64,000 nucleotides of DNA from contig JBIIRM010000001.1 in the NCBI GenBank assembly GCA_044341565.1, positions 74,527 to 138,526 of the forward strand. Direction: 5' to 3'. This document shows positions 7,887-64,000 of the stretch, one piece after another. Position numbers and translations under genes: made by a program. The notes beneath the pieces are model-generated. The model made no database searches. It was not told the origin of the DNA and worked only from the letters and a program-made list of their open reading frames with translations. This DNA is from Minisyncoccia bacterium. GTDB taxonomy: Bacteria; Patescibacteriota; Minisyncoccia; SW-4-49-11. How positions within the stretch are numbered: the stretch's first letter is position 1; each line of letters begins with the position of its first letter.

Positions 7887-7966
7887 TATTATGGGGATAA
7901 CCATTTTAGACTTTAGAGATATAATGGCTGTATATAAGTCTATTTAAGATTATAGTCTTTGCTGAT

Positions 7967-7975
7967 TGTGGATAA
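7967..7975 (-). promoter_or_regulatory. Consensus DnaA box (TGTGGATAA is the reverse complement of TTATCCACA) upstream of nrdA
   Basis: Perfect 9-mer about 75 nt upstream of the nrdA -35. Confidence 0.4.
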
Positions 7976-8029: not shown

Positions 8030-8045
8030 ATACTATATATAGTGG
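8030..8045. promoter_or_regulatory. NrdR-box-like palindrome abutting the nrdA promoter
   Basis: ATACTATATATAGTGG; the central 12 bp ACTATATATAGT (8032-8043) are perfectly palindromic and match the NrdR box consensus (acaCwAtATaTwGtgt, from memory) at ~13/16. Confidence 0.45.
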
Positions 8046-8050
8046 TTAAA

Positions 8051-8079
8051 TTGTATATTGAAAATAAGTCTGATATAAT
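8051..8079 (+). promoter_or_regulatory. sigma70-like promoter of nrdAB (TTGTAT-17-TATAAT)
   Basis: TTGTAT 8051-8056, 17-nt spacer, TATAAT 8074-8079, ~40 nt before the nrdA ATG. Confidence 0.45.
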
Positions 8080-11052: not shown

Positions 11053-11075
11053 TACATTTAATAAATACTATCAAT

Positions 11076-12110
11076 ATGTCTATTACCCAAACAAATCAAA
11101 GAATTAATATTAATGACAGACGAGTTATTAATGGAAAAGATGGGGATGTGGTGCAATTACATCCCATGAAACATATTTTTGCTTGGGATGCTTATCTTAC
11201 CGGGAATGCTAATCATTGGTTACCAACCGAAATTGGTATGCAAATTGATGTAGAGCAATGGAAATCAAATACTATTTTGACTGAAGATGAGAGACTTGCC
11301 TTCAAAACTGTATTAGGATTTTTTACCACAGCTGATTCACTTGCTGCGAACAATCTCGTACTTGCTACCTATAAGCATATTACATCTCCAGAAATTCGTA
11401 TGTATCTTTTACGTCAATCGTATGAAGAGGCTATACATACACATGCCTATCAATATATGGTGGAAAGTTTGGGTCTTGATGGAAGTGAAATATTCAATAT
11501 GTATCGTGAAGTTGAAAGCATTTATAATAAAGCTTCATTCTTCTTATCATTCAATGATGGAATTTTTGATCCTCATTTTAAAACTGGTACTTTTGAATCC
11601 GATCAGAAATTCTTAGAGAATCTTTGTGTATTTTCGCTTATTGTAGAAGGAATTTTCTTTTATAGCTCTTTTGCAGTAATATTTGGTTTTCAACGACAAA
11701 ATAAAATGCCAGGTAGTGCTGAGCAAATTCAATATATTATGAGAGATGAATCAAATCATCTCAATTTTGGAGCCGATATGATTAATACTATAAAGCAAGA
11801 ACAGCCCGAATTATGGACTCAAGAATTCCAAGCTCATATTACTGATTTGATTAAAGAAGCTGTGGGATTAGAATATGAATTTGCAACAACATGTTTCCCA
11901 AGAGGTATAATGGGAATTAGTGCCGATGGATTTAGACGCTATATTGAATATATTGCAGATAGAAGATTACAAAGAGTGGGTCTACCTATTGTATATGGAA
12001 CAGAAAATCCATTCCCATGGATGTCTGAGTCAGTAGATTTAGCTAAGGAGAAGAATTTCTTTGAAACTCGAGTTATTGAATATCAGACAGGAGGAACTCT
12101 AGATTGGTAA
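11076..12110 (+). CDS. nrdB: Class Ia ribonucleotide reductase beta subunit (di-iron/tyrosyl radical)
   Basis: 344 aa; ferritin-like R2 fold motifs (…YEEAIHTHAY…, …EGIFFYSSF…, …RDESNHLNF…). Confidence 0.85.
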   Translation: MSITQTNQRININDRRVINGKDGDVVQLHPMKHIFAWDAYLTGNANHWLPTEIGMQIDVEQWKSNTILTEDERLAFKTVLGFFTTADSLAANNLVLATYKHITSPEIRMYLLRQSYEEAIHTHAYQYMVESLGLDGSEIFNMYREVESIYNKASFFLSFNDGIFDPHFKTGTFESDQKFLENLCVFSLIVEGIFFYSSFAVIFGFQRQNKMPGSAEQIQYIMRDESNHLNFGADMINTIKQEQPELWTQEFQAHITDLIKEAVGLEYEFATTCFPRGIMGISADGFRRYIEYIADRRLQRVGLPIVYGTENPFPWMSESVDLAKEKNFFETRVIEYQTGGTLDW

Positions 12111-21071: not shown

Positions 21072-21162
21072 AATTATTTGGGGATAACACTTGCTTTTTT
21101 TAAAAATATTTGATAGTATAATAATAATGCAATACATCTAGTAGTAATTCATTTAAAAAAGT

Positions 21163-21681
21163 ATGTCTAGCATTTTACGGAAATTAACAGGAGCAGTAGA
21201 TTTTGAAGAGTCAGATCCAGCGATTGAAGATGATATCCAAGAAGATTTAAGAAGTAGATTTGTTGGCGTAGCAGATTCACCTGAATCTTTGTATACAGAT
21301 AGTTCAGAGACAACTATTGTAAGTCAAACTAGTTTTCAAACAGATGACGAATTAGTAGAGGGAGCTCTTACTATTGATGTGTATCAAACAGATAATGATA
21401 TTGTAATTGTATCTACCATTGCTGGGGTTACAGCAAAAGATTTAGATGTATCTATTACCAATGATATGGTAACAGTTTCAGGAGAAAGAAAAAATCCAGT
21501 AAAAGTTCGACAAGAGAATTATTTTTATCAAGAATGTTATTGGGGACCATTTTCTCGTTCAGTAATACTTCCTATTGACGTAGATGCTGAGAAATCATTA
21601 GCTGAGCTTAAAGATGGAGTTTTGACCGTAACTCTTCCAAAATCTGAAAAGGTTAAGATTAAGAAAATTCCTGTAAAGTAA
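21163..21681 (+). CDS. Hsp20/alpha-crystallin family small heat-shock protein
   Basis: 172 aa; alpha-crystallin domain (LTIDVYQTDNDIVIV…VTVSGER…GVLTVTLPK). Confidence 0.8.
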   Translation: MSSILRKLTGAVDFEESDPAIEDDIQEDLRSRFVGVADSPESLYTDSSETTIVSQTSFQTDDELVEGALTIDVYQTDNDIVIVSTIAGVTAKDLDVSITNDMVTVSGERKNPVKVRQENYFYQECYWGPFSRSVILPIDVDAEKSLAELKDGVLTVTLPKSEKVKIKKIPVK

Positions 21682-27731: not shown

Positions 27732-29234
<1,503 letters not shown>

Positions 29235-29441
29235 TAAGGATATGCCTGTTGAAGTAATTCAACAAGGAATGGTCGGTCAAGATGTAAATCTTGATACTTT
29301 TACACCAACAAATCCTTATCTTTTGAGATAAGGTGCGTCAGATTGTTACTAAAAGACATGTACTTGAATAATTATTGAATGGATTGAATTGTGTATAATA
29401 AAACAGATTTCTCTTGTATAGGGGAGTCTGTTTTATTTTAT

Positions 29442-31022
29442 ATGAGAATGGTGTATAATACTTCTATTATGGTAAGAAAATTAAAGACATTATTTCCAGC
29501 CTCAACCCTTGTATATGCTACTGGGTCATTGGTTATATTGAGTATTTTATCTCGTATTTTAGGTTTAGTCAGGGATAGATTATTAACCAGTACTATTCCA
29601 CTATCAGAGCTAGATTCGTATTTTTCGGCTTTCCGTATTCCAGATTTTTTATATAATATTTTAATTTTAGGTACATTATCTAGTGCTTTTATCCCTCTAT
29701 TTAGTAAATTAATTAATCGAAAAGATAAATCAGAAGAGGCTCAGGCATTAATCAAGGATGTCTTATTAGTAATTGGACTTTTGATGGGTATAGTATCGCT
29801 ATTAATGATAGTCTTCGCTCCCTATTTAGTAAAAATGGTAACCATCTCATATGATAATGAGAAATTTATAAATACAGTAAATTTAACCCGTATTATGGCA
29901 ATCTCTCCCTTGATATTTAGTATATCAAGTATTTTATCTAGTGTACTGAATGCGTATAAAAAATTTGTTATCGTAGCCCTGGGACCACTATTATATAATT
30001 TTGGAATTATTATTGGTATTGTATATTTTTATCCTGAGTGGGGAATAGCTGGGCTTGGATATGGAGTGATTTTGGGGGCTTTCTTACATCTTTTCATACA
30101 AATCCCAAGTATATTACAGCTTAATATACGCTTACAAATCAGTACAAATCTTCATATCAAAAATCTACAGAAATTATGGAAATTATATTGGCCAAGACTT
30201 TTGGTGATTGATACTGCGATGATTAGCTTATTTATTGGTACTATTATCGCCTCCACAAGAGCAAATGCTGTCACCTATTTTACTCTTGCTTTTAATCTTA
30301 ATACATTACCTCTTGGAATTATCGCCTTATCTTTTGCAACAGCGGTATTCCCATTTTTAACAGAAGCCTATACTAAGGGAGATGAAAAAGCATTTAGAAA
30401 TTATGTTATAGGAGGTATTGCTAAGAATTTATTAATATTAATTCCTGTAATGATGCTTATGCTCAACTTTAGAGCTCAATTAGTACGTATTGTATATGGG
30501 GGTGGAGTCTTTGATTGGGAAGCAACACGCATTACTTTTGATACATTTACTATATTGGCTTTATCCATACCATTTCAAGGTCTTATCCCCTTATTTAGTA
30601 GAACATTATTCGCTCGCCATGATACCAAAACTCCAACCATAGTGGGTATTATTAGTATGATATTCAATATATTCTTAGCCCTTATATTAAGTCATTATTG
30701 GGGGGTACAAGGGGTGGCCGCAGCCTTCTCTATTACTATTATTGCAACTTGTCTGATGTATGGGGCTATTATATTTAAAACCATTAATCATGGAAGTATT
30801 ATACGCACTATTCGATACGGTATACAGATTGGTATTTGGTCATTTGGTATGGTAATTATTGCATATGGATTAAAGCATTTACTTGGAAATATATGGGGAA
30901 CTAATACCACATTGGCTTTGATTTTACAGGTGCTCGGAGCCTCTATACCGGCTCTTGCAATTTATGCTTTTATCACATGGAAACTGGGACTCACAAAAGT
31001 ATTATTACAGGAAAAAGAGTAG
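29442..31022 (+). CDS. murJ: Lipid II flippase MurJ (MviN)
   Basis: Polytopic membrane protein; …VILSILSRILGLVRDRLLTSTIPLSELDSYFSAFRIPDFLYNIL… parallels the MurJ N-terminus; true start uncertain (tracked ORF starts at a GTG at 29391; in-frame ATGs at 29442, 29448 and 29469). Confidence 0.8.
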   Translation: MRMVYNTSIMVRKLKTLFPASTLVYATGSLVILSILSRILGLVRDRLLTSTIPLSELDSYFSAFRIPDFLYNILILGTLSSAFIPLFSKLINRKDKSEEAQALIKDVLLVIGLLMGIVSLLMIVFAPYLVKMVTISYDNEKFINTVNLTRIMAISPLIFSISSILSSVLNAYKKFVIVALGPLLYNFGIIIGIVYFYPEWGIAGLGYGVILGAFLHLFIQIPSILQLNIRLQISTNLHIKNLQKLWKLYWPRLLVIDTAMISLFIGTIIASTRANAVTYFTLAFNLNTLPLGIIALSFATAVFPFLTEAYTKGDEKAFRNYVIGGIAKNLLILIPVMMLMLNFRAQLVRIVYGGGVFDWEATRITFDTFTILALSIPFQGLIPLFSRTLFARHDTKTPTIVGIISMIFNIFLALILSHYWGVQGVAAAFSITIIATCLMYGAIIFKTINHGSIIRTIRYGIQIGIWSFGMVIIAYGLKHLLGNIWGTNTTLALILQVLGASIPALAIYAFITWKLGLTKVLLQEKE

Positions 31023-37350: not shown

Positions 37351-39042
37351 ATGGAATATACAAATCAATTTTTATCAATAGGATTATTGGTATTGAGCGG
37401 GATGATTAATTTCATTATCGGAATATTCATTTATTTTTTTGCATATCAATTATCCCATGGTAAATATGTATCATCTAAATATTTTGCATATCTTTGTTTT
37501 GGTATATTTACTTGGGCTTTATGGTTGGGGCTCCGAACCTTATATTTTTATCCTGAAGGAAATATATGGGGTATATATATTGCTAATATTGCTATTTATA
37601 TTACTATTATTAGTGTTGTACAGGTATTAGTGTTTTTTGGATTAGCTTTTCATAATACTCAACGTACATTTCATCAATATCGATTTTTATATTATCCTTA
37701 TATTTTGGTTGCAATAGCAATTCTTATCCCACAAGTTGGAATATTACAATTAGATGCTAATAATCCCATTGCATATCAATCATTAGCATATTATATATTT
37801 ATTCTTTATATTGTGAGTTATAGTATTTTATATATAAGTTTATTAGTATATCGCTATAATAGGGTAACTAATCATACAGCAAAAAGACATATACAAATTA
37901 TATTATTGGGGACAATATTTAGTTTATTAGCAGCATCTATCACAAATATTATACTTCCATCTATATTTGGTAATACTCAGTTTATTTATTATGGTCCAAT
38001 TGCAACGGTAGTATTATCAGCAACAGTATTATTTGCTATTATTCGGTATCGATTATTTCGTATACAGCTTCCTATTGCAGGACTCATGACAACATTGGTT
38101 ATTACTATTATATTATTAATTATACGATTTATTATTATTGATAATAATTTTTCGGAGGGAGTACAGTCAACTATGTTAGTCGTATTTATGTTTACCTGTT
38201 TATATACATTTTTAACCAGAGAAGCTTATGTAGGTGCCCAGAAACAAGTTATTCTCGATAATAAAAAACAAGAATTAGAAATTGCACTTGACTCCAAAAA
38301 TGATTTTTTGAAAAATGCCTCTCATCAACTCAGAACTCCATTAACAGTTATACAGGGATATTTAGCAATGATTACGGGAAAAGAAGATCCCAAATATACA
38401 TTAAATCAAGCAGCATTAGATGATTTGCAAAAAGCCTATATCAGTGCAAAAAATTTGAATGAAATTATTAATGATGTATTATCCGCTAATGATGTTAATG
38501 CAGGTCGTTTTGGTATAAATATCAAAGATACCATCGATTTAAAGGAATTAATTGATACGATTATTGAGGAAAAACATGAATTATTGAATAGTAAATCAAC
38601 TAAAGTAGTATTTAAGAGTAAAGGGACCGGTATGCAAGCCTTTATTGATAAAGGGAAATTAAAGGAAGCTCTTAATAATATTATTGATAATGCTGTCTTT
38701 TATGGGAAAGGAAAAATTAGTATTACTCTTGATGCTAAGGGAAAAGAATTTTTCATTATATCAGTTCAGGATAATGGGGTAGGTATTACCAAAGAAGATG
38801 CTAAGAAAATCTGGAGAAAATTTGAGAGAGGTAAAAAATCATCACTTATTAACCCCAATGGGTCTGGACTTGGGTTATATTTAGCAAAGCAAATTATGCT
38901 GAAACATGGTGGCGACATAGAGGCCCACTCAGATGGGAGAGATCAAGGTAGCATATTCATATTTACTCTTCCAAAGGAAACCTTAACGCATGCCCCAGCA
39001 GAATCATTTGGTATTAATATACCACAGGCTACTCAAGGGTAG
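37351..39042 (+). CDS. Membrane sensor histidine kinase (multi-TM N-terminal domain, no receiver)
   Basis: 563 aa; ~7-8 TM helices, H-box NASHQLRTPLTVIQGYL, G-box GSGLGLYLAK. Confidence 0.8.
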   Translation: MEYTNQFLSIGLLVLSGMINFIIGIFIYFFAYQLSHGKYVSSKYFAYLCFGIFTWALWLGLRTLYFYPEGNIWGIYIANIAIYITIISVVQVLVFFGLAFHNTQRTFHQYRFLYYPYILVAIAILIPQVGILQLDANNPIAYQSLAYYIFILYIVSYSILYISLLVYRYNRVTNHTAKRHIQIILLGTIFSLLAASITNIILPSIFGNTQFIYYGPIATVVLSATVLFAIIRYRLFRIQLPIAGLMTTLVITIILLIIRFIIIDNNFSEGVQSTMLVVFMFTCLYTFLTREAYVGAQKQVILDNKKQELEIALDSKNDFLKNASHQLRTPLTVIQGYLAMITGKEDPKYTLNQAALDDLQKAYISAKNLNEIINDVLSANDVNAGRFGINIKDTIDLKELIDTIIEEKHELLNSKSTKVVFKSKGTGMQAFIDKGKLKEALNNIIDNAVFYGKGKISITLDAKGKEFFIISVQDNGVGITKEDAKKIWRKFERGKKSSLINPNGSGLGLYLAKQIMLKHGGDIEAHSDGRDQGSIFIFTLPKETLTHAPAESFGINIPQATQG

Positions 39043-40742: not shown

Positions 40743-42335
40743 ATGATTTATAGTATCTTATCATTAGGTGTAATTGCAATTCTTAGTATTGCTTGGACTT
40801 TAGTATATAAAAAAAATCATACAAGTATATCACAATGGTTCTTATTTCCCTTGACGGGAGCGATTATATGGACATTTGGTTGGTTGGGAATACACATTAT
40901 TTTTTCTAAGCCAGATTTTTTTTCAAAGTCTCTATATATAATCTTCCAACAAATTATGTTCTCAGGACTTATTGCTGTGCCATTAGGTCTTATTATAACA
41001 GCATTGTATTATCCATTTAGTAAGACAAATACTGTATATAAGAATAGAATTTCTTGGGCTATTAGTATTGTGTATATACTATTTTTGATTCCTATTTACA
41101 CCTCATTTCATTTATTTCAAAATATCAGCATATATAACAATGGTGTTGTCTTAGAATATGGACCTTTATTCCAATATTATCAAATAGGATTAGGGATAGC
41201 TTTATTTATGAGTATTATAGTCATTATAAGTCGATTAAAGCATATTCAAAAAAAGAAAGACAAAATAGTATCATTATATTTTATTATGGGTTATTTTATC
41301 ACTATCATAGGGTACATTACTAGCACATTATTTATTTTTATTCAAGGGGATAGTACTTTTATGAAATATAACCCACTTTTATTACTGGTCTGGATTGGAT
41401 TTATTGTAATAGGAGCTATTCAATATAAATTAGTTGACTCAAAAATCTTTATATCCCAAATTATTATTATATGGGCAGTAATTATTATTGCTGTTATCAC
41501 ATTTAGTAATACATCACCAGTTACTCTTATTATTGACATATTATTTCTGATTATATTTAGTGTATTAGGAATTATTCTTATACAAAACTTACAAGAATCA
41601 TCTTATATCAAAAAAGATTTAAATAGAGATAATCGCAAATTACAAAAATTTATTAATGTAAAAGATAATTTTTTGAGAATGACAACACATCAATTGAGAA
41701 CCCCAGTAATTATTTTAGAAGAATATACCAGTACTTTGATAAATAAAGTATCAAAGAATCAGTCTCCTGAATTAGACTATTTACATAAAATTCTTATTAA
41801 TAATTATCGATTAAAAGAAGTGATAGAGGATTTAACTCTTACTTATGCTATAGAAGCTGATAAATTTGAATTAAATCATATTGTTCCAGTAGATATTGCT
41901 CTCATCATAGAGCATGTCATGGAGGATATTAAAACATCTCAAAAATATCTTGATATTACAATGCGATTAGAAAAAGCCAATAGAAATTATATTATTAAGG
42001 GGGAAGCCCATTATTTAGAATTAGCTTTTAAAAAAGTAATACAGAATGCCTATATATTTGCAAATGAAGAAGTGATAATACGGTTACATACCAATAAGGA
42101 TAGTATTCTTATTTCTATTGTAGATGATGGAATTGGTATTAATAAAGATGATTTGCGACAATTATTCCTTCCTTTTATACGAGGATATAGGGCTCCTGTA
42201 TTAAATCCAGATGGATCTGGATTAGGTATTTACTTAACAAAACATATTGTTAATAGCCATGAAGGTAAATTTATGTTAAAAAGTGATGGTGAGGGCTTGG
42301 GTGCTGAAGCTATAATTATTCTCCCTAAAAATTAA
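40743..42335 (+). CDS. Membrane sensor histidine kinase (paralogue)
   Basis: 530 aa; multi-TM N-terminus, H-box MTTHQLRTPVII, G-box GSGLGIYLTK. Confidence 0.8.
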   Translation: MIYSILSLGVIAILSIAWTLVYKKNHTSISQWFLFPLTGAIIWTFGWLGIHIIFSKPDFFSKSLYIIFQQIMFSGLIAVPLGLIITALYYPFSKTNTVYKNRISWAISIVYILFLIPIYTSFHLFQNISIYNNGVVLEYGPLFQYYQIGLGIALFMSIIVIISRLKHIQKKKDKIVSLYFIMGYFITIIGYITSTLFIFIQGDSTFMKYNPLLLLVWIGFIVIGAIQYKLVDSKIFISQIIIIWAVIIIAVITFSNTSPVTLIIDILFLIIFSVLGIILIQNLQESSYIKKDLNRDNRKLQKFINVKDNFLRMTTHQLRTPVIILEEYTSTLINKVSKNQSPELDYLHKILINNYRLKEVIEDLTLTYAIEADKFELNHIVPVDIALIIEHVMEDIKTSQKYLDITMRLEKANRNYIIKGEAHYLELAFKKVIQNAYIFANEEVIIRLHTNKDSILISIVDDGIGINKDDLRQLFLPFIRGYRAPVLNPDGSGLGIYLTKHIVNSHEGKFMLKSDGEGLGAEAIIILPKN

Positions 42336-42337
42336 AT

Positions 42338-43975
42338 ATGAATACAGATTCACAATATATTATTGAAGTATTATTAGGCTCTATTGGGGGGCTATTAAGT
42401 TTAGCCTTGGGGGTATTTTGTGTCGTAATATATAGAAGTACAGTTAAAAAATATACTATAAAGCATCGATATGTAGGGTGGTTTGGAGTATTATTAATTG
42501 CTACAGGAATTTGGGCATTATGTGAGGTCTGGAATGAACAGCAATTTTTTGGAGGATATGAATTGGCACTTACCTATGGAATTGGTATAATGTTACCCCT
42601 TATATTTTATATTTTTGTTAAATCATTGGATAATACATTCAAATGGGATTGGAAATTCTTTCTCTTTCTCTTTATACAGATAAGTATTATTTTGTATTTA
42701 ATTCACCCACAATATGGCATTGTAGATTATCAATATCCATCGCCTGAATTACGACTAGGATCTTTTCAGCATCTTGTATTTGTACTCTATATGTTCTTAG
42801 CCAGTTTTCTCGGATTATCATATTTATTAAAGATTGTACGTACAAAAACCATTCCTTATGCTGAGGGTATATTTGTTGCTCTAGCAGTACCATTTAGTGT
42901 TGTAGCAATTGCTAATATTGTAATTCCCTTTATATTCCTTGATAATTCATATCATCGTATTGGGCCATTGGGATTATTATTAATGGCTATATATATAACC
43001 TATATTATTATTAAACAAGAGGCTTTAAAAATACCGGTTATTCTATTCCAGTTATATGCACTTGGAACTATTCTGGTTACAGCTATTGCAGTACAAATAG
43101 GGTTAATCTTATTTGGAGTTACAAGTATTTTTCAACCGGAAAGAATTATTTTGATTATTATATTAAGTATTATCGTGGGAGTTTTAATGAATCAAACATT
43201 ACAAGGGTTGGAAGATGCCAATTTAGTGCAAAAAGTCCACAAAGAATTAAAATCTTCTATTAAGGCTAAGAATCAATTTATTCAAATATCCTCGCATCAG
43301 TTAAGAACTCCTATTACTGCAATTAAGGGATATTTATCTTTATTAAAAGAAGCGCATGCCCCCAAAGATGATGCAATGGGCCATTATATTGTACAAATGA
43401 GTGTCATTGTACAAAATATGTCTACTGTTATTGAGGATGTTTTGAATGTAAACTCTCTTAATTCTGGTGATTTTAGTGTAAGACTAGATGATATATTTGA
43501 CTTAGAAAAACAATTAACAGACACAGTTGAAAATAAATCATTCCTAATGGATAAGTCAAATATCAGTTATACTTATACCGTAAAAGGAGATGATTTTATG
43601 ATAAAGGGAGATGAGGTAAAAATACGAGAAGTTTTGAATAATGGACTTGATAATGCTTTGCAATATGGTAAAGACCACATTAAGATCCAACTTATTGGAA
43701 ATAAAAAAGAAATACAAATTAAAATACAAGATAATGGTATTGGTATTACGCCAGCAGAGCAAAAAATTATTTTTAAACCATATAAAAGAGGCGAATCTGC
43801 TCAGCAAATACGTCATGATGGAACTGGGCTTGGGCTTCATTTGATGAAATTGATCATAGAAGCCCATAAAGGAACTGTTAGTATAAAAAGTGAGGGAAGA
43901 GATAAAGGAAGTATGCTTACCATAACGATTCCAAGAATTCATCAAGATAATAAAAAGGTGGTGGAAGAGAAATAA
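42338..43975 (+). CDS. Membrane sensor histidine kinase (paralogue)
   Basis: 545 aa; multi-TM N-terminus, H-box SSHQLRTPITAIKGYL, G-box GTGLGLHLMK. Confidence 0.8.
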   Translation: MNTDSQYIIEVLLGSIGGLLSLALGVFCVVIYRSTVKKYTIKHRYVGWFGVLLIATGIWALCEVWNEQQFFGGYELALTYGIGIMLPLIFYIFVKSLDNTFKWDWKFFLFLFIQISIILYLIHPQYGIVDYQYPSPELRLGSFQHLVFVLYMFLASFLGLSYLLKIVRTKTIPYAEGIFVALAVPFSVVAIANIVIPFIFLDNSYHRIGPLGLLLMAIYITYIIIKQEALKIPVILFQLYALGTILVTAIAVQIGLILFGVTSIFQPERIILIIILSIIVGVLMNQTLQGLEDANLVQKVHKELKSSIKAKNQFIQISSHQLRTPITAIKGYLSLLKEAHAPKDDAMGHYIVQMSVIVQNMSTVIEDVLNVNSLNSGDFSVRLDDIFDLEKQLTDTVENKSFLMDKSNISYTYTVKGDDFMIKGDEVKIREVLNNGLDNALQYGKDHIKIQLIGNKKEIQIKIQDNGIGITPAEQKIIFKPYKRGESAQQIRHDGTGLGLHLMKLIIEAHKGTVSIKSEGRDKGSMLTITIPRIHQDNKKVVEEK

Positions 43976-54217: not shown

Positions 54218-55486
54218 ATGAAAAGATGGCTCTATATACCTCGAATACCAGAGCTTAGAAATAAACTTCTACTTGTATTTGGTATATTAATAATATATCG
54301 GCTTATTGCATCTATTCCTATTCCAGGAGTAGATACTGCTCGTATACAAGCTTTTGCTGATTCTAATCAGCTTGTAGGACTTCTTGATGTATTTTCAGGA
54401 GGAGGATTTTCTAATTTTTCTTTAGTAGCATTGGGTGTTGGGCCATATATTACCGCTTCTATTATTATGCAATTATTCACAATGGTAGTCCCATCATTGA
54501 ATCGATTATATAAAGAAGAAGGAGAACAAGGAAGACAAGTATTCAATCAATATACAAGAATGCTCACCGTACCACTTGCTATTGTGCAGGCAATGTCAAC
54601 ATTGACATTATTAAGAAGTCAAAATATTATTCAGGATATTACCAGCCTACAAGTCATTACTATTGTCGCTTTAATGACAGCAGGAAGTATTGGACTTATG
54701 TGGCTCGGAGAGATAATCACCAATCAAAATGTAGGGAATGGAATATCATTGATTATATTCGCAGGTATTATTGCGGGGCTCCCAACAACATTAAGTCAAT
54801 TTTTCTTAAACTTTAATAGAGGAGAGATTCCATTATATCTTGTATATACCGCTCTTACCTTAATTGTTATATATGCAATTATCTTTATTACTGAGGGACA
54901 GCGTAATATACCCATATCATATAGTAAAAAATCGCGAGGATCACTCGTTAATGCACAAGTTGACACCTATTTACCAATGAAAGTAAATCAGGCTGGGGTA
55001 ATGCCGATTATTTTTGCAGTATCTCTCGTATTATTCCCACAAGTTGTAGCTAATTTATTAGTACAAAGTAATATTTCTTGGCTAGCCTCAGGAGCTCAAG
55101 CAGTTAATACTTTCCTTTCTAATCAAGTAGCTTATGCTAGTCTCTATTTCATCTTTGTATTAGTATTTACCTATGTGTATACTACCATTGTTTTCGAACC
55201 AAAAGCAGTGGCTGAGAATTTACAAAAACAAGGAGGTTTTGTAACAGGAATTCGTCCAGGAGAAAAAACAGCTCAATATCTTCAATATGTATCCAATAGA
55301 ATTATTATTTTTGGAGCTGTATTCTTAGGTATTATTGCGGTATTACCATATATTGTTACTGGATTTACTGGCAATCAAGCATTAGCCATTGGAGGAACTA
55401 GTCTCTTAATCGTGGTATCTGTAATTCTTGAGACTATGAAACAAATCGACTCACAAATTATTGTGAGAGATTATGATAGTCTTTAA
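54218..55486 (+). CDS. secY: Preprotein translocase subunit SecY
   Basis: 422 aa; 10-TM SecY family. Confidence 0.9.
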   Translation: MKRWLYIPRIPELRNKLLLVFGILIIYRLIASIPIPGVDTARIQAFADSNQLVGLLDVFSGGGFSNFSLVALGVGPYITASIIMQLFTMVVPSLNRLYKEEGEQGRQVFNQYTRMLTVPLAIVQAMSTLTLLRSQNIIQDITSLQVITIVALMTAGSIGLMWLGEIITNQNVGNGISLIIFAGIIAGLPTTLSQFFLNFNRGEIPLYLVYTALTLIVIYAIIFITEGQRNIPISYSKKSRGSLVNAQVDTYLPMKVNQAGVMPIIFAVSLVLFPQVVANLLVQSNISWLASGAQAVNTFLSNQVAYASLYFIFVLVFTYVYTTIVFEPKAVAENLQKQGGFVTGIRPGEKTAQYLQYVSNRIIIFGAVFLGIIAVLPYIVTGFTGNQALAIGGTSLLIVVSVILETMKQIDSQIIVRDYDSL

Positions 55487-55506: not shown

Positions 55507-55522
55507 GTAAAACTTATCCACA
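55507..55522 (+). promoter_or_regulatory. 16-bp motif GTAAAACTTATCCACA containing a perfect DnaA box, upstream of cassette copy 1
   Basis: Identical 16-mer recurs at 61331-61346 upstream of the paralogous gene; the -10 TATAAT at 55537-55542 has an adjacent upstream TG. Confidence 0.45.
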
Positions 55523-55590
55523 TAGATACAATAGTGTATAATCAATGAATATGGTATACTATTAAAAGAGAATAATAAATACACATTTTT

Positions 55591-57162
55591 ATGAAAAAAA
55601 TAAATTCAATATTAGGTATGGTCGTATTAATGACATCTTTGTTTTCCCCTCAGATAGCAGTATTAGCTCAGGGTATATCGAGTATGGATATAGATAACTT
55701 AACTCAAGAAGAATATGATAATCTAGTGAAAGAAAGAGAGCAACTTGAAAGTAGTCGGGGGGAGCTTCCAGAACCCCTATCACCAACTCCACCCACAGCA
55801 GAAGAGGTAGAGAGATGGATTAAGGAAAGCGAAGATAATCCCCCAGAAGAAATTCCATATATAAGTACATTAAAGGAAGAAGGTTTAAAGAATGCATCAC
55901 TAGGTAATTGCTTTGATGTATATAAATTTAATAATATACGACTAGGTATTATTGTGGATCAAAATGAATATCAGACAGGAGCAGAAGCTAAGCCAGGATC
56001 AGGTCTTATAAGATTTACAGGAAATATTGAAAATAATAATAATTATCCACTAGTAGATTTAAAGATAAAAGCTAAAATAGTTAAAATTGAACAAGAAGGT
56101 AATAAGAGAATAGTTAAGACAGTAGATGAAATAGTGATAAAAGATAATATAAGCTTAGCAAGTCAGGGAACACAGGAGATAGATGAATCATACCAACTAC
56201 CAATTAAGGCGGCTAAAGGAGACTATGAAATATTATTGTCTGTAGTTTCCAATGATCAGATTAGTGTAGCGGGATTAAGCTTTACAGATGATGTATATGC
56301 ATCTAAATTAAATTTTAAAATAGAAGGTGATAATACAGAAGAGATAATTATTAAACAAAAAGATATAACGATCAATGATGTTCCGTATAATAATTTATCA
56401 TTCAATCCTAAATATAGAGATAAAAGACCAGTTACAATCAAAGTACCGATACAGAACAATACAGATACAGATAAAGAAGTAGAAGTAGAATATGAAGTAT
56501 ATAGCTGGAGTGATGACATAGGGAAAATAAAGAAAGAATTAAAACAATTAAAAACAATAGCCAAGCAAGGTACAAGTATAGCAAGCTATACAATAGAAGA
56601 ACAAGCAGAAGCAGTATATTATATTAAAATAAAAGTTAGAGGTAATAATGTGCTCACAAATATGAGCTGGAAAAATATAGCAAATATAAGGTTTGTGAAT
56701 GAAGATATAAGTGAGCCAAGAATAGCTGCGGTAACATTAAATACTAGCCCATATAGTCCAGAAAAAGGTGATATACAGCTTTTAACTTGTATACATAATA
56801 CGAATGAGACTGAAGTGGAAACAATAGTAGAAAACACCATAAAAGATGAGAGTGGTAAAATAATAGCAAGTAGTGAATATAAAGGAACGGTTACAGGTCA
56901 AGTTGATGGTATATATACTCAATTGCCAAAAAATAAGAGATATAATACCTTAATGGTAACAAGTACAATTAAGGATAAAGACGGAAATATACTGAATACC
57001 GTTGACTTAAATTATGACTGTAAAGAATTAAACCCAAATCAATGTGGTCAGGGAAATACAAATGGTAGTATATGGGTATTATTAGGAGGATTATTAGTGT
57101 TAGGAGGGCTAGTGTTTGGATTTCGAGAATATAGAAGGAGAGCATTAAAGTCGATAAAATAA
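55591..57162 (+). CDS. Secreted, C-terminally membrane-anchored surface protein (signal peptide plus C-terminal TM helix and basic tail), unknown family; paralogue of 61404-62810
   Basis: 523 aa; N-terminal signal MKKINSILGMVVLMTSLFSPQIAVLAQG; C-terminus …GSIWVLLGGLLVLGGLVFGFREYRRRALKSIK; blocks conserved with the paralogue: NCFDVYKF, LLTCIHNT, NYDCKELNPNQC. Confidence 0.6.
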   Translation: MKKINSILGMVVLMTSLFSPQIAVLAQGISSMDIDNLTQEEYDNLVKEREQLESSRGELPEPLSPTPPTAEEVERWIKESEDNPPEEIPYISTLKEEGLKNASLGNCFDVYKFNNIRLGIIVDQNEYQTGAEAKPGSGLIRFTGNIENNNNYPLVDLKIKAKIVKIEQEGNKRIVKTVDEIVIKDNISLASQGTQEIDESYQLPIKAAKGDYEILLSVVSNDQISVAGLSFTDDVYASKLNFKIEGDNTEEIIIKQKDITINDVPYNNLSFNPKYRDKRPVTIKVPIQNNTDTDKEVEVEYEVYSWSDDIGKIKKELKQLKTIAKQGTSIASYTIEEQAEAVYYIKIKVRGNNVLTNMSWKNIANIRFVNEDISEPRIAAVTLNTSPYSPEKGDIQLLTCIHNTNETEVETIVENTIKDESGKIIASSEYKGTVTGQVDGIYTQLPKNKRYNTLMVTSTIKDKDGNILNTVDLNYDCKELNPNQCGQGNTNGSIWVLLGGLLVLGGLVFGFREYRRRALKSIK

Positions 57163-57166
57163 GCAT

Positions 57167-59326
57167 ATGAAAAACCTTAAATATAACCATATGAAATATA
57201 TAGTAATACTACTATTATCCTTAATAGTATATATGTTACCTCAACAAAGTTCTGCAATATCCGTACCAGTTAATTATACAGATAGCTGGAATTATTATAG
57301 ATTACATAAAAGAGGTGGCTGTGGAGGTCCACCTGACTTTAAGGCGCAAACATTGTTTGGTATGAGTCTAGACAAACAATTTACTCTTCAAGCTCAAGGT
57401 ATTAGAAACTTAAATCAAAATGAGTCAGGAGCTGGAGATATCCCTGTTGGAACAAATTTGCTTGCATATAATGATAATGTAACCGGATCTTATTGGTACG
57501 CTCAAGTAGATAATGCTACTCCCCCCATGGACAATAATATATATAACTGGAATTATATGAGCAGTGGAGGAGATTGTTCAGGCGGTTATGAGGTGCAAAA
57601 TCAGATGCGAGGAGGGATAATAGGTCAAGTGGGGCATAGTATCTCAAGTAGTGATCCGAGTATTATAGATTGTGCTTCAGCACCTAATCTTAGTAGAGGA
57701 TGTACTACTAAAAGAGAAGGAGTTGCCACATTGACTGTTAGTTGGCCAGGGTCTGGTTCTTATTATGTCGAAAGGAATTACCAGTGGGGGAGTACTTTCC
57801 CTAAGATTACATATGAAGCGCAGGTATGTACAGTCACTGGATATACATTTGTAAGATATTCGGGGCGTGTACCTATAACAAAATGTTCTTGTCCTGCTGG
57901 TACAAATCAAAGAATCGTGTCAACTGGTCGTGTTGGTGGTCAAAGCGTGGTCTGTATAAGAAATTTGGGGAACGTCTTTACTGCAGCGGGAGGAGGGTAT
58001 GCAAGGGAGGGATGGGGATATTCCTTAAATCCAATAACCTATACTGTAAGAGTAAAGAATCCAAACCAAGCACCAACAGTAGCCTATACAGGAACAACAG
58101 GTATAGGATATAATACCGCAACAGCAAATTGGAGCTATAGTGATGTGGATGGAGATGCTCAAACAAATGCTGCAGTACAAATAGCTACTGATCCCGGCTT
58201 TACTAATATTGTATGGGGTGGATATGCTGGTACTGCAAGTAATATAGCAATATCAGGACTTATACCAGGGACAACATATTATCCACGAGTAGCAGCATAT
58301 AATCCAGTAAACGGATGGACAGGATGGTTAAATGGAGTAGCCTTTAGTACAAAAGTAAATAATCCACCTAATCTAGATCAATTAAGCTGTGGAGGAACAG
58401 GAACAGGATATACAACAGGTAATATAAATTGGAATTATACAGGTACAGATGAGCCAGGAGATGAGTTAGTATTAAAAGCAAAATGGAGAAGAGAAGGAGA
58501 AGTAGATTGGGTATGGGACAACTTACCATATAATACTAGAACAGGAAACATAGATATAAGTGGATTAATATCTGGATATGAGTATGACATACAAGTAAGT
58601 CTAAACGATAACCGCAATAGCAACTTAGGAGATAGATGGAAAGGATGTGGAAGATTTACAACCACAGAATATCCAGAACCTAGCGTAGATTTCAATTTAA
58701 AGAGTGGAAGTACAACAGTAGCAAAAGGAGAAACTTTAACAATAAAGACAGGAGATCCAATTAGTACAAATTGGAAAATAACTAATACAGACGGGTTGAA
58801 TCCTAGTAGTTGTGCATTAAGTACCGAAGGAGTAAGGACTATATTTAATGAAAGTGGTTTAGGGTTTGGACCAGACTCGAGACAAAACAATAATGTAGAA
58901 CCAGATAAAGCTGATCAAACATATACAATAAATCTTAGTTGTACAGGGAAGGAGGCAAAAGTTCCAAGATCAGTCAATGCAAATATTACATTAGTGATAC
59001 AAAGCTATCCGTTAATAAGTTGTAGAGTAGTAAATACTAAGGTAGTAAGTGCAGAGAGGCCAACAGCAGAAGTAGAAGGGACAATAGGGAATGCAAATCC
59101 ACAATATACATGGCGAATAAAAAGGACAATAGGAGAGAATTATGGAAGTCCAATAACAAGTGATAGTACAACACAAAAATTCACTCTAGATTATACAGGA
59201 TTAGGACTAGGGAAATACAATCCAGTCATAGAAGCAAAAGGATCATTAGGAAGAACAGCAGAGAAAACCTGTACTGGAGATATAACTAATTTTGGGGATA
59301 GATCTATTAGAGAAGTAGCTAAATAG
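57167..59326 (+). CDS. Secreted Cys-rich protein with fibronectin type III-like repeats; paralogue of 62814-64000+
   Basis: 719 aa; signal peptide; >20 Cys; FN3-like blocks (…ANWSYSDVDGDAQ…GLIPGTTYYPRVAAYN… and …NINWNYTGTDEPGDEL…). Confidence 0.6.
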   Translation: MKNLKYNHMKYIVILLLSLIVYMLPQQSSAISVPVNYTDSWNYYRLHKRGGCGGPPDFKAQTLFGMSLDKQFTLQAQGIRNLNQNESGAGDIPVGTNLLAYNDNVTGSYWYAQVDNATPPMDNNIYNWNYMSSGGDCSGGYEVQNQMRGGIIGQVGHSISSSDPSIIDCASAPNLSRGCTTKREGVATLTVSWPGSGSYYVERNYQWGSTFPKITYEAQVCTVTGYTFVRYSGRVPITKCSCPAGTNQRIVSTGRVGGQSVVCIRNLGNVFTAAGGGYAREGWGYSLNPITYTVRVKNPNQAPTVAYTGTTGIGYNTATANWSYSDVDGDAQTNAAVQIATDPGFTNIVWGGYAGTASNIAISGLIPGTTYYPRVAAYNPVNGWTGWLNGVAFSTKVNNPPNLDQLSCGGTGTGYTTGNINWNYTGTDEPGDELVLKAKWRREGEVDWVWDNLPYNTRTGNIDISGLISGYEYDIQVSLNDNRNSNLGDRWKGCGRFTTTEYPEPSVDFNLKSGSTTVAKGETLTIKTGDPISTNWKITNTDGLNPSSCALSTEGVRTIFNESGLGFGPDSRQNNNVEPDKADQTYTINLSCTGKEAKVPRSVNANITLVIQSYPLISCRVVNTKVVSAERPTAEVEGTIGNANPQYTWRIKRTIGENYGSPITSDSTTQKFTLDYTGLGLGKYNPVIEAKGSLGRTAEKTCTGDITNFGDRSIREVAK

Positions 59327-61330: not shown

Positions 61331-61346
61331 GTAAAACTTATCCACA
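61331..61346 (+). promoter_or_regulatory. Second copy of the 16-bp motif GTAAAACTTATCCACA (DnaA box) upstream of cassette copy 2
   Basis: Identical to 55507-55522; followed by an extended -10 (TGC TATAAT, 61368-61376) with no good -35. Confidence 0.45.
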
Positions 61347-61403
61347 ATAATTAATATTGATAAGATATGCTATAATAATTAAGAATACATAATATAAATA
61401 CAT

Positions 61404-62810
61404 ATGCAAAGAAAATATAAAGCATTAGCAATATTCGGGATAATAGTAACACTATTGTCACCACATATAATAGTGAGAGCCCAAGAAGATAATATTGAGG
61501 GTGATGTTTTGACAGATATATCAGGTCTAGACCCCACATCTGTAAAAGAAGGTGAAATTACAAACTGTTTCGATACCTATAAATTTGGTTCAGAAGGCAT
61601 AGCTCTTACAGCGGGGTCAGAGCTTAATGAATATAAGCCATATGATTTGGTAGAAGTCTCAGGAAAAATATCAAATAACAATCCTTATCCGGTATTAGGA
61701 CTAACAGTAAGAGCTAGGGTATTGAGAAATCACCCTAACCCAGTAATACAAAGAGCATTATATACCACCGTAGATGACCTTGTGGTAGCAGATAATATAT
61801 TAATTAAAGCAAATAGTGAATATGATTTAAATTTTGCTTATAATATCTCAGGAAATGCACCAGCAGGTGAATATAAGATACAGTATTATGTATATAACCA
61901 AAATAGATTTAATTTAAATGGACTATCCTTTACTGAAGATATAGTGTCAAATATGACAGAATTTGAGGTATTGGGTGGGAATGAGCATTTATACCTAGAT
62001 AAAACTAATATCACTGTAGATGGACAGATTAATGACACTAGGGCGTTTATCACACAACATGAGCAGGGTAAAGATATACCAGTCAGATTACCATTAATTA
62101 ATCCAACAGGAAAAACTCAAGAAGTAGAGGTTAGTTATAAATTATATAAATGGGATGAGATATTGGAAAGCAATTTTATAGAAGAGCGGATTCAACAAAT
62201 AACTATAGAAGCTAATGGTAAAATAGATTTAGAATATATAGTAAAGCAGACAGAATATCCAGTGTATTATATGGTTATAGAAGCAAATCCAATAGGAGAA
62301 AATTTAAAGTCTCCTAATAACCAAGAAAAAACAATGGCACATATAAGGTTCTCAGTAGAAGGTAGTAATAGACCAAGAGTAAATTGGGTAGGATTAAATA
62401 AGAATCCATTTGAAGGTGGAGATGTTGAATTATTAACATGTGTACATAATACTGTGTTTGAGACAGATGAAGGTCCAGTAAAAGTTCAAAGTATAGCTAA
62501 GGATGAGAAAGGAAGAGAGCTAAGTAAAATAGAGTATGAAGGTGTAATGCCATCAGCAATAAGTGGAATAAAGAATAAACTCAATACAGAAAAAAAATTT
62601 AATACAGTCACAATAGAGACAAGTATATACAATGCAAGCAATGAGCTAGTAGATAATATAATCACAAATTATGATTGTAATGAAATAAGTCCAGATTTGT
62701 GTTTAGTAGAATCAAAATCTAATAATATAATAATTATAGCAGGGCTAATATTATTAGGTATATTGGGAGGATTTATAGTATATAAGAGGTATAAGAAGTT
62801 AAAGAATTAA
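61404..62810 (+). CDS. Secreted, C-terminally membrane-anchored surface protein; paralogue of 55591-57162
   Basis: 468 aa; signal peptide MQRKYKALAIFGIIVTLLSPHIIVRAQ; C-terminus …IIIIAGLILLGILGGFIVYKRYKKLKN; shares the NCFDTYKF, LLTCVHNT, NYDCNEISPDLC blocks. Confidence 0.6.
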   Translation: MQRKYKALAIFGIIVTLLSPHIIVRAQEDNIEGDVLTDISGLDPTSVKEGEITNCFDTYKFGSEGIALTAGSELNEYKPYDLVEVSGKISNNNPYPVLGLTVRARVLRNHPNPVIQRALYTTVDDLVVADNILIKANSEYDLNFAYNISGNAPAGEYKIQYYVYNQNRFNLNGLSFTEDIVSNMTEFEVLGGNEHLYLDKTNITVDGQINDTRAFITQHEQGKDIPVRLPLINPTGKTQEVEVSYKLYKWDEILESNFIEERIQQITIEANGKIDLEYIVKQTEYPVYYMVIEANPIGENLKSPNNQEKTMAHIRFSVEGSNRPRVNWVGLNKNPFEGGDVELLTCVHNTVFETDEGPVKVQSIAKDEKGRELSKIEYEGVMPSAISGIKNKLNTEKKFNTVTIETSIYNASNELVDNIITNYDCNEISPDLCLVESKSNNIIIIAGLILLGILGGFIVYKRYKKLKN

Positions 62811-62813
62811 ATA

Positions 62814-64000
62814 TATGAATATGGAAATGACTACCAAAAATATAGCAATCTCTATTATTAGTTTAATATACCTATTCTTCTTACTACCACAAAATACTTT
62901 TGCAAATAGAGTAGAACATCCGAGCGAGACAATATCAATAGTCTGTGTTATTGCATGTGACGATACTAATAATACCTTGAGAATTCCAAGTATTTCAGGA
63001 CAGATTTATGCTTCAGCTAAAACTCAAAAATTTGATATGGTTAGATCAGATAATAGTAAGAATCTAACAGATGGAGCTGAGATACCAATAGGAACAAAAT
63101 TAAAATATACCAATTATGATAAAGAACCTGCAAATGGAACATGGAACTTTACTGGGGGTACATATGATTCTCCAGATATGAATGAGCAGTGGTATCAACT
63201 TGACTTTAAAGCCAATGAAACTTATGAAGAGTGTATATGTGAACAATATAAATGTATCGAGGAGAATAAGCAGGGTGAGTGTAAAAAAAGATCTACTACT
63301 GACTGTAAAAAAGAGAAATGTACTACAAAAACTAATGACAAAACTAAACAAGCCCAAATTAAGGTATCCCCTCCATCTAATAATAAACCCGATAAAATAG
63401 AAGGTAGGGGAGCTGTAGTATGTGATAATGATAAGAGAGAGTGTACTACTACAAGCACAGGAGATGCTAGTATAACCATTACTTTTCCTAAGGCAACCGC
63501 AACTATAAAAGGCCGTTTAAAAGATGACGATGACGATAGAGAAGATACATCAGAGTTTAAATTTGATAAAGTTAGTTTTACCTATGATTTTACAGTATAT
63601 GATCCAAACACACCTCCTATTGTAAGTAATTGTGGGGCAAGCAATGTAAACTATGAAGACGGTAGAATTACATGGAATTATAGTGATGCTGATGGAGATA
63701 GACAAGCTAAAGCATATGTACAAGTATCTACCGCATCAGATTTTTCACAATTTAATTATGGAGTAAATAAAGTAATAAATAGTAATGCTACTACTCTAGA
63801 TGTGAACGGATTGATTCCTGGAACTAGATATTATTTTAGAGTCAAAGCTAATGACGGCAAAGTAGATGGAGGATGGTGTAATACTGCCTCATTTAATACT
63901 CCTTCTAACAATCCTCCTAATTTAGATAGATTAAGCTGTAGTGCAACATCAGGAGCAACAGATTATACAAGAGCTAACATAAATTGGAATTATACGGGAA
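62814..64000 (+). CDS. Secreted Cys-rich protein with FN3-like repeat(s), 3' end cut by the window edge; paralogue of 57167-59326
   Basis: Frame open from the ATG at 62814 to the end of the window; signal peptide MNMEMTTKNIAISIISLIYLFFLLPQNTFA; …ITWNYSDADGDRQAKAYVQVSTASDFS…GLIPGTRYYFRVKAND… and …NPPNLDRLSCSATSGATDYTRANINWNYTG parallel the first copy. Confidence 0.55.

Follow-up and report, generated by a model that had tools for sequence, protein, structure and literature searches.

A conserved DnaA-box element upstream of surface-protein cassettes and nrdAB in Patescibacteria as a candidate DnaA operator

The replication initiator DnaA is well known to double as a transcription factor, and several described systems provide a reference for the locus reported here. 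At the Escherichia coli nrdAB promoter, DnaA binding has been confirmed by ChIP-seq (PMC11317965) and DnaA both activates and represses the operon, while regulation of ribonucleotide reductase (RNR) has also been proposed in Bacillus subtilis and Caulobacter (PMC8203912). In E. coli cells, DnaA seldom binds without a pair of boxes spaced 2-3 bp apart, and of 32 consensus boxes it occupies only 13 (PMC11317965). The cassette promoters that we describe resemble E. coli nrdAB in that the consensus box TTATCCACA, read on the coding strand, stands a short way before the -35 element, and the same genomes also place boxes at their own nrdAB; they differ in having one box rather than a pair at 3-bp spacing, in driving secreted surface proteins rather than functions in replication or nucleotide metabolism, and in belonging to a reduced-genome Patescibacterium. 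Caulobacter crescentus offers a second parallel, with a DnaA regulon (gcrA, ftsZ, podJ and nrd) that couples the start of replication to the cell cycle, to polar and surface development and to RNR (PMC8203912), although its boxes are degenerate and embedded in a multi-regulator circuit, whereas ours are perfect boxes in a fixed geometry ahead of multi-copy Ig-like/fn3 cassettes. Direct DnaA regulation of a few operons through the same 9-mer in a low-GC genome is described for B. subtilis (dnaA-dnaN, sda, ywlC, yydA, vpr, trmE and others; PMC8203912), but those targets carry clusters of many boxes and include no surface-protein family, in contrast to the single box found here. Finally, the E. 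coli asnC roadblock, as PMC11317965 describes it from its reference 28, is a comparable case of a single box that ends an upstream transcription unit and whose orientation matters; unlike it, our boxes lie at a constrained distance to a downstream promoter, even where there is no co-directional upstream gene (locus L028). Against this background, the new points are the genes concerned, which are multi-copy cassettes for surface proteins plus a pilin-like gene, the fixed geometry with one box, and the phylum; our literature search found no paper linking DnaA boxes to promoters of candidate-phyla-radiation (CPR) bacteria.

The window, by which we mean the whole 64-kb stretch of DNA analysed, has a GC content of about 33%, is coding almost wholly on the plus strand and has a ribosomal-protein operon with secY (54218-55486) at its end; promoters in this genome are of the ordinary TTGACA/TATAAT kind, and many have a TGn-extended -10. 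A 16S rRNA gene (27732-29233) stands alone, being the only RNA gene found by Rfam and tRNA scans of the window, with adjoining 23S, 5S and tRNA genes not detected there; after it comes a 543-aa GTG-start open reading frame (29391-31022) in locally GC-richer DNA (43%).

A 16-mer, GTAAAACTTATCCACA, occurs exactly twice in the window, both times on the plus strand, at the two positions reported in an earlier sequence-only reading and confirmed by our exact search. Allowing up to two mismatches recovers the same two sites across the whole window, against a shuffle expectation of 0.05, and none of 100 shuffles gave at least two matches. The embedded 9-mer is, as that reading had also held, identical to the DnaA-box consensus in both copies, and TTATCCACA is found exactly three times in the window, always in intergenic DNA (55514-55522, 61338-61346 and, on the minus strand, 7967-7975). 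Copy 1 lies between secY and the first of two cassettes, and the start of copy 2 adjoins the stop codon of an rluD-like gene:

55507-55522, plus strand: 16-mer copy 1, GTAAAACTTATCCACA, with the box at 55514-55522 and the family-wide core ACTTATCCACA at 55512-55522
55591-57162, plus strand: cassette 1 gene 1, 523 aa, no Pfam family match
57167-59326, plus strand: cassette 1 gene 2, 719 aa, secreted, fn3/Ig-like repeats, weak fn3 match
61331-61346, plus strand: 16-mer copy 2, with the box at 61338-61346 and the conserved core ACTTATCCACAA at 61336-61347
61404-62810, plus strand: cassette 2 gene 1, 468 aa, paralogue of the gene at 55591-57162
62815-64000, plus strand: cassette 2 gene 2, fn3/Ig-like, truncated by the window end

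The cassettes are indeed paralogous: the gene 1 copies share 30% amino acid identity over 406 aa (E = 1e-58) and the gene 2 copies 45% over 143 aa, in one fn3-like stretch. This paralogy is old, and with the gene 1 copies at 30% identity the perfect 16-mer is far better conserved than the genes downstream of it. The structural model of gene 1 (pLDDT 78) predicts a signal peptide followed by a helical N-terminal region, then about four beta-sandwich (Ig-like) domains, and a transmembrane helix at the C terminus. Foldseek returned generic Ig-like matches only (RbmA, integrins, macroglobulins), and we assign no specific function to gene 1 from matches of this generic Ig-like/macroglobulin-like kind; the predicted architecture of genes 1 and 2 nevertheless makes "surface protein cassette" a fair name. 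The gene 1 family is small (35 clusters) and limited to Patescibacteria MAGs labelled Paceibacteria, Parcubacteria or "Saccharibacteria". Two more cassettes stand in tandem between a tyrS-like gene and pheS/pheT in two relatives (L023, 5041-11707; L024, 9902-16774), immediately upstream of the point that corresponds to the window start, where pheT occupies 76-1917, and the source genome probably has four cassettes with a box before each.

Orthologous and paralogous loci were collected from metagenomes, from species-representative genomes and by exact-protein look-up. Among 18 distinct cassette promoters from related Patescibacteria (Paceibacteria-like MAGs), 17 carry the box, 15 of them exactly and two with one mismatch: TTATTCACA, in the secY-linked copy of the closest relative, fits the relaxed consensus TTWTNCACA, and TTATCCACT, in L009, does not fit it and is the 9-mer found in the nrdA double box of L033. 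In all 17 the box lies 60-85 nt before the ATG and always on the coding strand, whichever gene stands upstream (secY, rluD-like, glycosyltransferase-like or tyrS-like), and the tandem-cassette genomes (L023, L024) have one box per cassette. The remaining promoter, in L025, has lost about 45 nt including the box and kept its -10; an extended -10, ATATGCTATACT, is still present at 9969-10000, so that this locus is a natural box-deletion variant.

We next consider how much of the 16-mer is conserved. Anchoring the 17 promoters on the box gives an information profile with a sharp 12-nt block, AC-TTATCCACA-A, that falls to background on both sides, with C at position -1 in 15 of the 17 as against G at the nrd sites described below. 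The preceding GTAAAAC is common only to the window's own clade (window copies 1 and 2, L019 and L024a, with L024b reading GTAACAC). The 12-nt block being family-wide and GTAAAAC clade-only, the 16-mer resolves into a 12-nt functional core plus clade-specific shared ancestry. The proposal that the 16-mer is a shared operator thus holds as far as a selectively kept site is concerned, and gives way on its extent, the likely recognition unit being the 12-nt block.

Within the clade, alignment shows the intergenic regions to be homologous throughout, with the box, an ATG-n-TATAnT extended -10 and the leader standing out as islands and indels between them; the surrounding DNA of the two window copies, taken at first to be otherwise unrelated, in fact shares this homologous extended -10 block and leader. 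Homology along the length of the two regions, together with a GTAAAAC shared within the clade only, is what might lead one to see the 16-mer identity as a functionless remnant of cassette duplication or gene conversion. We regard this as extremely improbable, and in our view the comparative data already refute it: the box is exact while the coding sequences stand at 30% amino acid identity, it is kept where orthologues are 53-68% identical and the flanks are randomised, and it also occurs in non-homologous promoters. The earlier view that more is involved than the decaying identity of a duplication is therefore upheld, over 30-68% protein identity and behind differing upstream genes. On this comparative evidence the site is a cis-element kept by selection in orthologous regulatory regions, and it is very probably an operator.

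Cassette promoters also appear to move. In L004 (5900-6000) and L008 (5800-5900), which come from the same sample, a promoter stretch of about 85 nt from box to ATG is identical, while the upstream genes differ and gene 1 has 64% and 53% identity to the query, respectively, which suggests that the promoter module was moved between cassettes by recombination or conversion.

The cassette promoters fall into two layouts. In class A, a layout seen in ten cassette promoters and fitted exactly by window copy 1, the box is followed by 9-11 nt, a TAGACA-like -35, 17-18 nt and TATAAT or TATACT, with the box end 31-34 nt from the -10; the TAGACA-type layout was read in L003, L004, L005, L009 and L021. 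In class B (window copy 2, L017b, L020, L024a and L024b), the box end lies 22-26 nt before the extended -10, a spacing that varies by 4 bp, and the box therefore abuts the -35 slot, in which there is no good -35 hexamer. The corresponding elements in the window are:

55523-55531, plus strand: gap of 9 nt between the copy 1 box and the -35-like hexamer
55532-55537, plus strand: inferred -35-like hexamer TAGTGT of copy 1, the counterpart of TAGACA in relatives
55538-55554, plus strand: copy 1 spacer, 17 nt
55552-55560, plus strand: copy 1 extended -10, TGgTATACT, lying in the invariant ATG-n-TAT block of the alignment, with the box end 32 nt upstream of the -10 hexamer
61368-61376, plus strand: copy 2 extended -10, TGcTATAAT, with the box end 24 nt upstream of the hexamer

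These assignments revise the promoter first proposed for copy 1, in which the box took the -35 position ahead of a TATAAT at 55537-55542. That TATAAT is present, 14 nt past copy 1, but it overlaps the -35-like hexamer, and the conserved -10 is TGgTATACT at 55552-55560; the TATAAT could be a second local promoter. Nor does the box occupy a -35 position, since its end lies 22-34 nt upstream of the conserved extended -10, outside the -35 slot in both classes, and a consensus promoter scan found no TTGACA-type pair that uses the box as its -35. Taking the E. coli nrdAB promoter as TTGCAA, 17 nt and TATCTT, our own reading of locus L031 and one consistent with a leader of roughly 110 nt, the ends of boxes 1 and 2 fall 34 and 22 nt, respectively, before the -10. 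On that reading, class A (31-34 nt) and class B (22-26 nt) match the positions of box 1 and box 2. Inspection of the aligned cassette promoters revealed no second box (more than 4 of 9 matches) 2-3 bp to either side of the first.

Some relatives' surface-gene promoters also contain runs of 5-8 G between the box or -35 and the extended -10 (L017, about 9950-9956; L024, about 9924-9931; L020, about 9925; L028, about 2431-2445), for example TTGACAGGTGGGGGGGGAGCATGTGATAAT ahead of a pilin-like gene. Such poly-G in the promoter spacer looks like slipped-strand phase variation; the window's two cassette promoters have no poly-G tract.

Of the window's three exact boxes, the remaining one stands ahead of nrdAB, which is among the classical targets of DnaA (PMC8203912, PMC11317965), and the window also has one-mismatch boxes, one before nrdA and one before hsp20:

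7892-7900, minus strand: one-mismatch box TTATCCCCA, just past the rplA terminator and 75 nt above the exact box
7967-7975, minus strand: exact box AAGTTATCCACAAT, retained by L027, L028 and L029, with the nrdA start about 150 nt downstream
8038-8056: NrdR-like palindrome ATACTATATATAGTGG, with the DnaA-like boxes on one side and the TGATATAAT promoter of nrdA on the other
8122-11052, plus strand: nrdA, which with nrdB (8122-12110 together) encodes a class I ribonucleotide reductase
11076-12110, plus strand: nrdB
21079-21087, minus strand: one-mismatch box TTATCCCCA, just upstream of the hsp20 promoter
21163-21681: hsp20

A box stands upstream of nrdAB in the window and in five of six relatives. 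Both boxes are in place in L027, L028 and L029, whose NrdA is 93%, 87% and 81% identical to that of the window, while the DNA between them diverges, and relatives keep the box at 7892-7900 in position either as TTATCCCCA or as TTATTCACA. L030 (NrdA 67%), with a different neighbour, carries an exact box on the plus strand beside an NrdR-like palindrome and TTGCTATAAT, and the distant L033 (NrdA 62%, GC 53%) has TTATCCCCAtttTTATCCACTTGCCAGAG upstream of nrdA; the exception is L032 (NrdA 63%), whose nrdA upstream region is without a box. At 9805-9830 of L033 (GCA_964596525.1) we read TTATCCCCAtttTTATCCACTTGCCAG, two boxes spaced 3 bp apart, the second of which continues into a TTGCCA -35, a layout almost that of E. 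coli nrdA (TTATCCACAaagTTATGCACTTGCAAG, TTATCCACAaagTTATGCACTTGCAAGAG; read from NC_000913.3) and the only 3-bp-spaced pair among the promoters compared. We count nrdA and nrdB as probable further members of the same regulon, and the L033 layout suggests that DnaA control of RNR is ancient. The proposed coupling of the cassettes to replication gains support from the box conserved upstream of nrdAB, and with a DnaA box at both cassette and nrd promoters these genes are probably tied to replication state.

The NrdR-like palindrome is kept in L027-L030, and in L030 the DnaA-like box directly abuts it. We considered and rejected the cassette motif itself as an NrdR box of the 16-bp palindromic type ACACTATATATAGTGT, the motif being asymmetric and the NrdR-like ATACTATATATAGTGG a separate element. 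Beyond nrdAB, a pilin-like gene in L028 has a non-homologous promoter reading ACTTATCCACAA, 9 nt, TTGACA, 17-18 nt and TGTGATAAT, which is class A geometry. The hsp20 box is the same variant as the distal nrd box and is kept in the 93% relative L027 (about 22300); L027 is too close a relative for this to show selection, and hsp20 is a tentative regulon member.

The positions of the sites bear on whether the motif might be a -35-type element of an alternative sigma factor, or a recombination site that switches surface cassettes. Copy 1 does precede the -10-like TATAAT at a -35-like distance, and the presence of several paralogous cassettes per genome, with poly-G in some promoters, hints at variation. 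Against a sigma element, there is no conserved partner at a fixed 15-19 nt past the box, and the nrd sites of the window are inverted and lie about 120 nt from the nrdA promoter. Against recombination, every cassette copy is a direct repeat with a -10 of its own, the sites have no inverted repeats and no recombinase gene is found among the cassette-neighbouring genes. Both ideas are very improbable, and we rejected them, along with pure duplication, on the comparative data.

Exact boxes were counted by location over about 243 kb of non-redundant lineage DNA: 12 are intergenic compared with 0.17 expected from composition, three further ones lie in the last codons of an upstream gene, and five are truly coding compared with 3.0 expected. 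With the relaxed TTWTNCACA, all 19 intergenic sites in about 330 kb lie upstream of cassettes, nrdA or one pilin-like gene, and none of the other approximately 250 intergenic regions of the collected loci has a match. These loci were picked through their cassette and nrdA genes, so that the specificity counts and the regulon list describe the chosen loci rather than an unbiased genome scan. Exact boxes inside gene 2 paralogues (L024 at 12639 and 16459; L025 at 12738) were discarded as operators; they encode S-Y-P-Q, equivalent to the fn3 strand YYPRV (window 58279, TTATCCACG), and are thus coding coincidences. Three one-mismatch boxes in L023 (15163-15265) were likewise dismissed as a box cluster, lying within the pheT coding sequence.

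The location of the boxes behind upstream genes raises a different role for DnaA, as a roadblock to read-through from the secY or rluD operon that would leave cassette initiation unregulated. The boxes lie at or within a few nucleotides of the upstream stop codon, that of L011 overlapping the last codons, their orientation is uniform, and a precedent exists in E. coli, where a DnaA/box complex sits at the end of asnC (Schaefer and Messer 1988, as cited in PMC11317965). No plus-strand intrinsic terminator was found between secY or rluD and the cassettes, which leaves room for such a role. A roadblock would have no need, however, for the constrained distance to the -35/-10, which in ten promoters is 31-34 nt; in L023 an obvious terminator hairpin precedes the box at 8553, and the divergent pilin-like gene of L028 keeps the box, the 9 nt and TTGACA with no co-directional gene upstream. 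We consider it improbable that DnaA acts at the cassettes mainly in this way.

A more serious competitor is a lineage-specific transcription factor, such as one of the few response regulators in these reduced genomes, that reads the 12-mer ACTTATCCACAA to control the surface-protein cassettes and to which the likeness to a DnaA box would be coincidental or partial. The conserved block is longer than the 9-mer by 2 nt on its 5' side and 1 nt on its 3' side, the box is single where DnaA in E. coli needs pairs in vivo (PMC11317965), and the window has genes for three histidine kinases and L029 one for an OmpR-type regulator. On the other side, the 9-mer is the DnaA consensus in 15 of 17 promoters, with one variant (TTATTCACA) fitting TTWTNCACA and the other (TTATCCACT) matching the L033 nrdA 9-mer, and the same box stands at nrdAB, including the E. 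coli-like double box of L033. Most dimeric factors and OmpR-type regulators require a palindrome or a direct repeat, and the motif is neither; any DnaA of canonical specificity would bind these consensus sites anyway. We hold a dedicated factor of this kind to be unlikely, though still a serious candidate. The kinase genes are a curiosity in their own right: lying at 37351-39042, 40743-42335 and 42338-43975, one with a 7TM sensor domain, they surround an ABC-ATPase gene with no adjacent response regulator, a cluster unusual for so small a genome.

The interpretation that we favour, and think rather probable on the comparative pattern, is that the motif is a DnaA box serving as an operator close to the promoter, with DnaA acting as the transcription factor. 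DnaA, as the presumed binder, would contact the box through its domain IV and, once bound, would modulate recruitment of RNA polymerase, by analogy with the E. coli nrdAB boxes; the cassettes, the pilin-like gene and nrdAB would then follow the level or nucleotide state of DnaA, and hence replication status. The motif is asymmetric and single, with TTATCCACA always on the coding strand in cassette promoters, which, as expected, fits a monomeric domain IV contact and not a dimeric helix-turn-helix factor. Consensus boxes that DnaA occupies in E. coli have flanks (gag/aagTTATCCACA; PMC11317965, Table 1) similar to those seen here, where an A followed by C or G precedes the box. As to the sign of regulation, our guess leans slightly to activation, because the box adjoins weak or absent -35 elements. 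We assume that the DnaA of this lineage has canonical box specificity; tblastn with an approximate E. coli DnaA query returned no match in the window and 26 loci (L001-L026).

Several observations count against DnaA. The cassette promoters present a single box where E. coli follows a pair rule, although that rule is E. coli's and is not known to be universal; the cassette promoters prefer C at position -1 where the nrd sites have G; the spacing in class B is loose, its 4-bp variation being, judged from the alignments, loose for a face-specific activator; and L025 is boxless. A stronger version of the DnaA interpretation would make this protein the main direct regulator of surface composition in a lineage with very few transcription factors: one monomer-sized consensus box, held at a fixed place beside the -35, would switch all cassettes, the pilin-like gene and nrdAB through single-box regulation, and the relatives' poly-G tracts would add phase variation. 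We offer this version tentatively, as a possibility.

Gene regulation in CPR bacteria is almost unknown, and the element described here may offer a way in. If the binder is not DnaA, the 12-mer would mark where some other, uncharacterised regulator controls the surface proteome of this lineage. If DnaA controls the cassettes, they would form with the pilin-like gene and nrdAB a concrete regulon in organisms that cannot yet be manipulated, and would constitute a natural test of whether a single consensus box suffices for DnaA control, contrary to the double-box rule of E. coli. The production of surface or host-attachment proteins would then keep pace with the initiation of replication.
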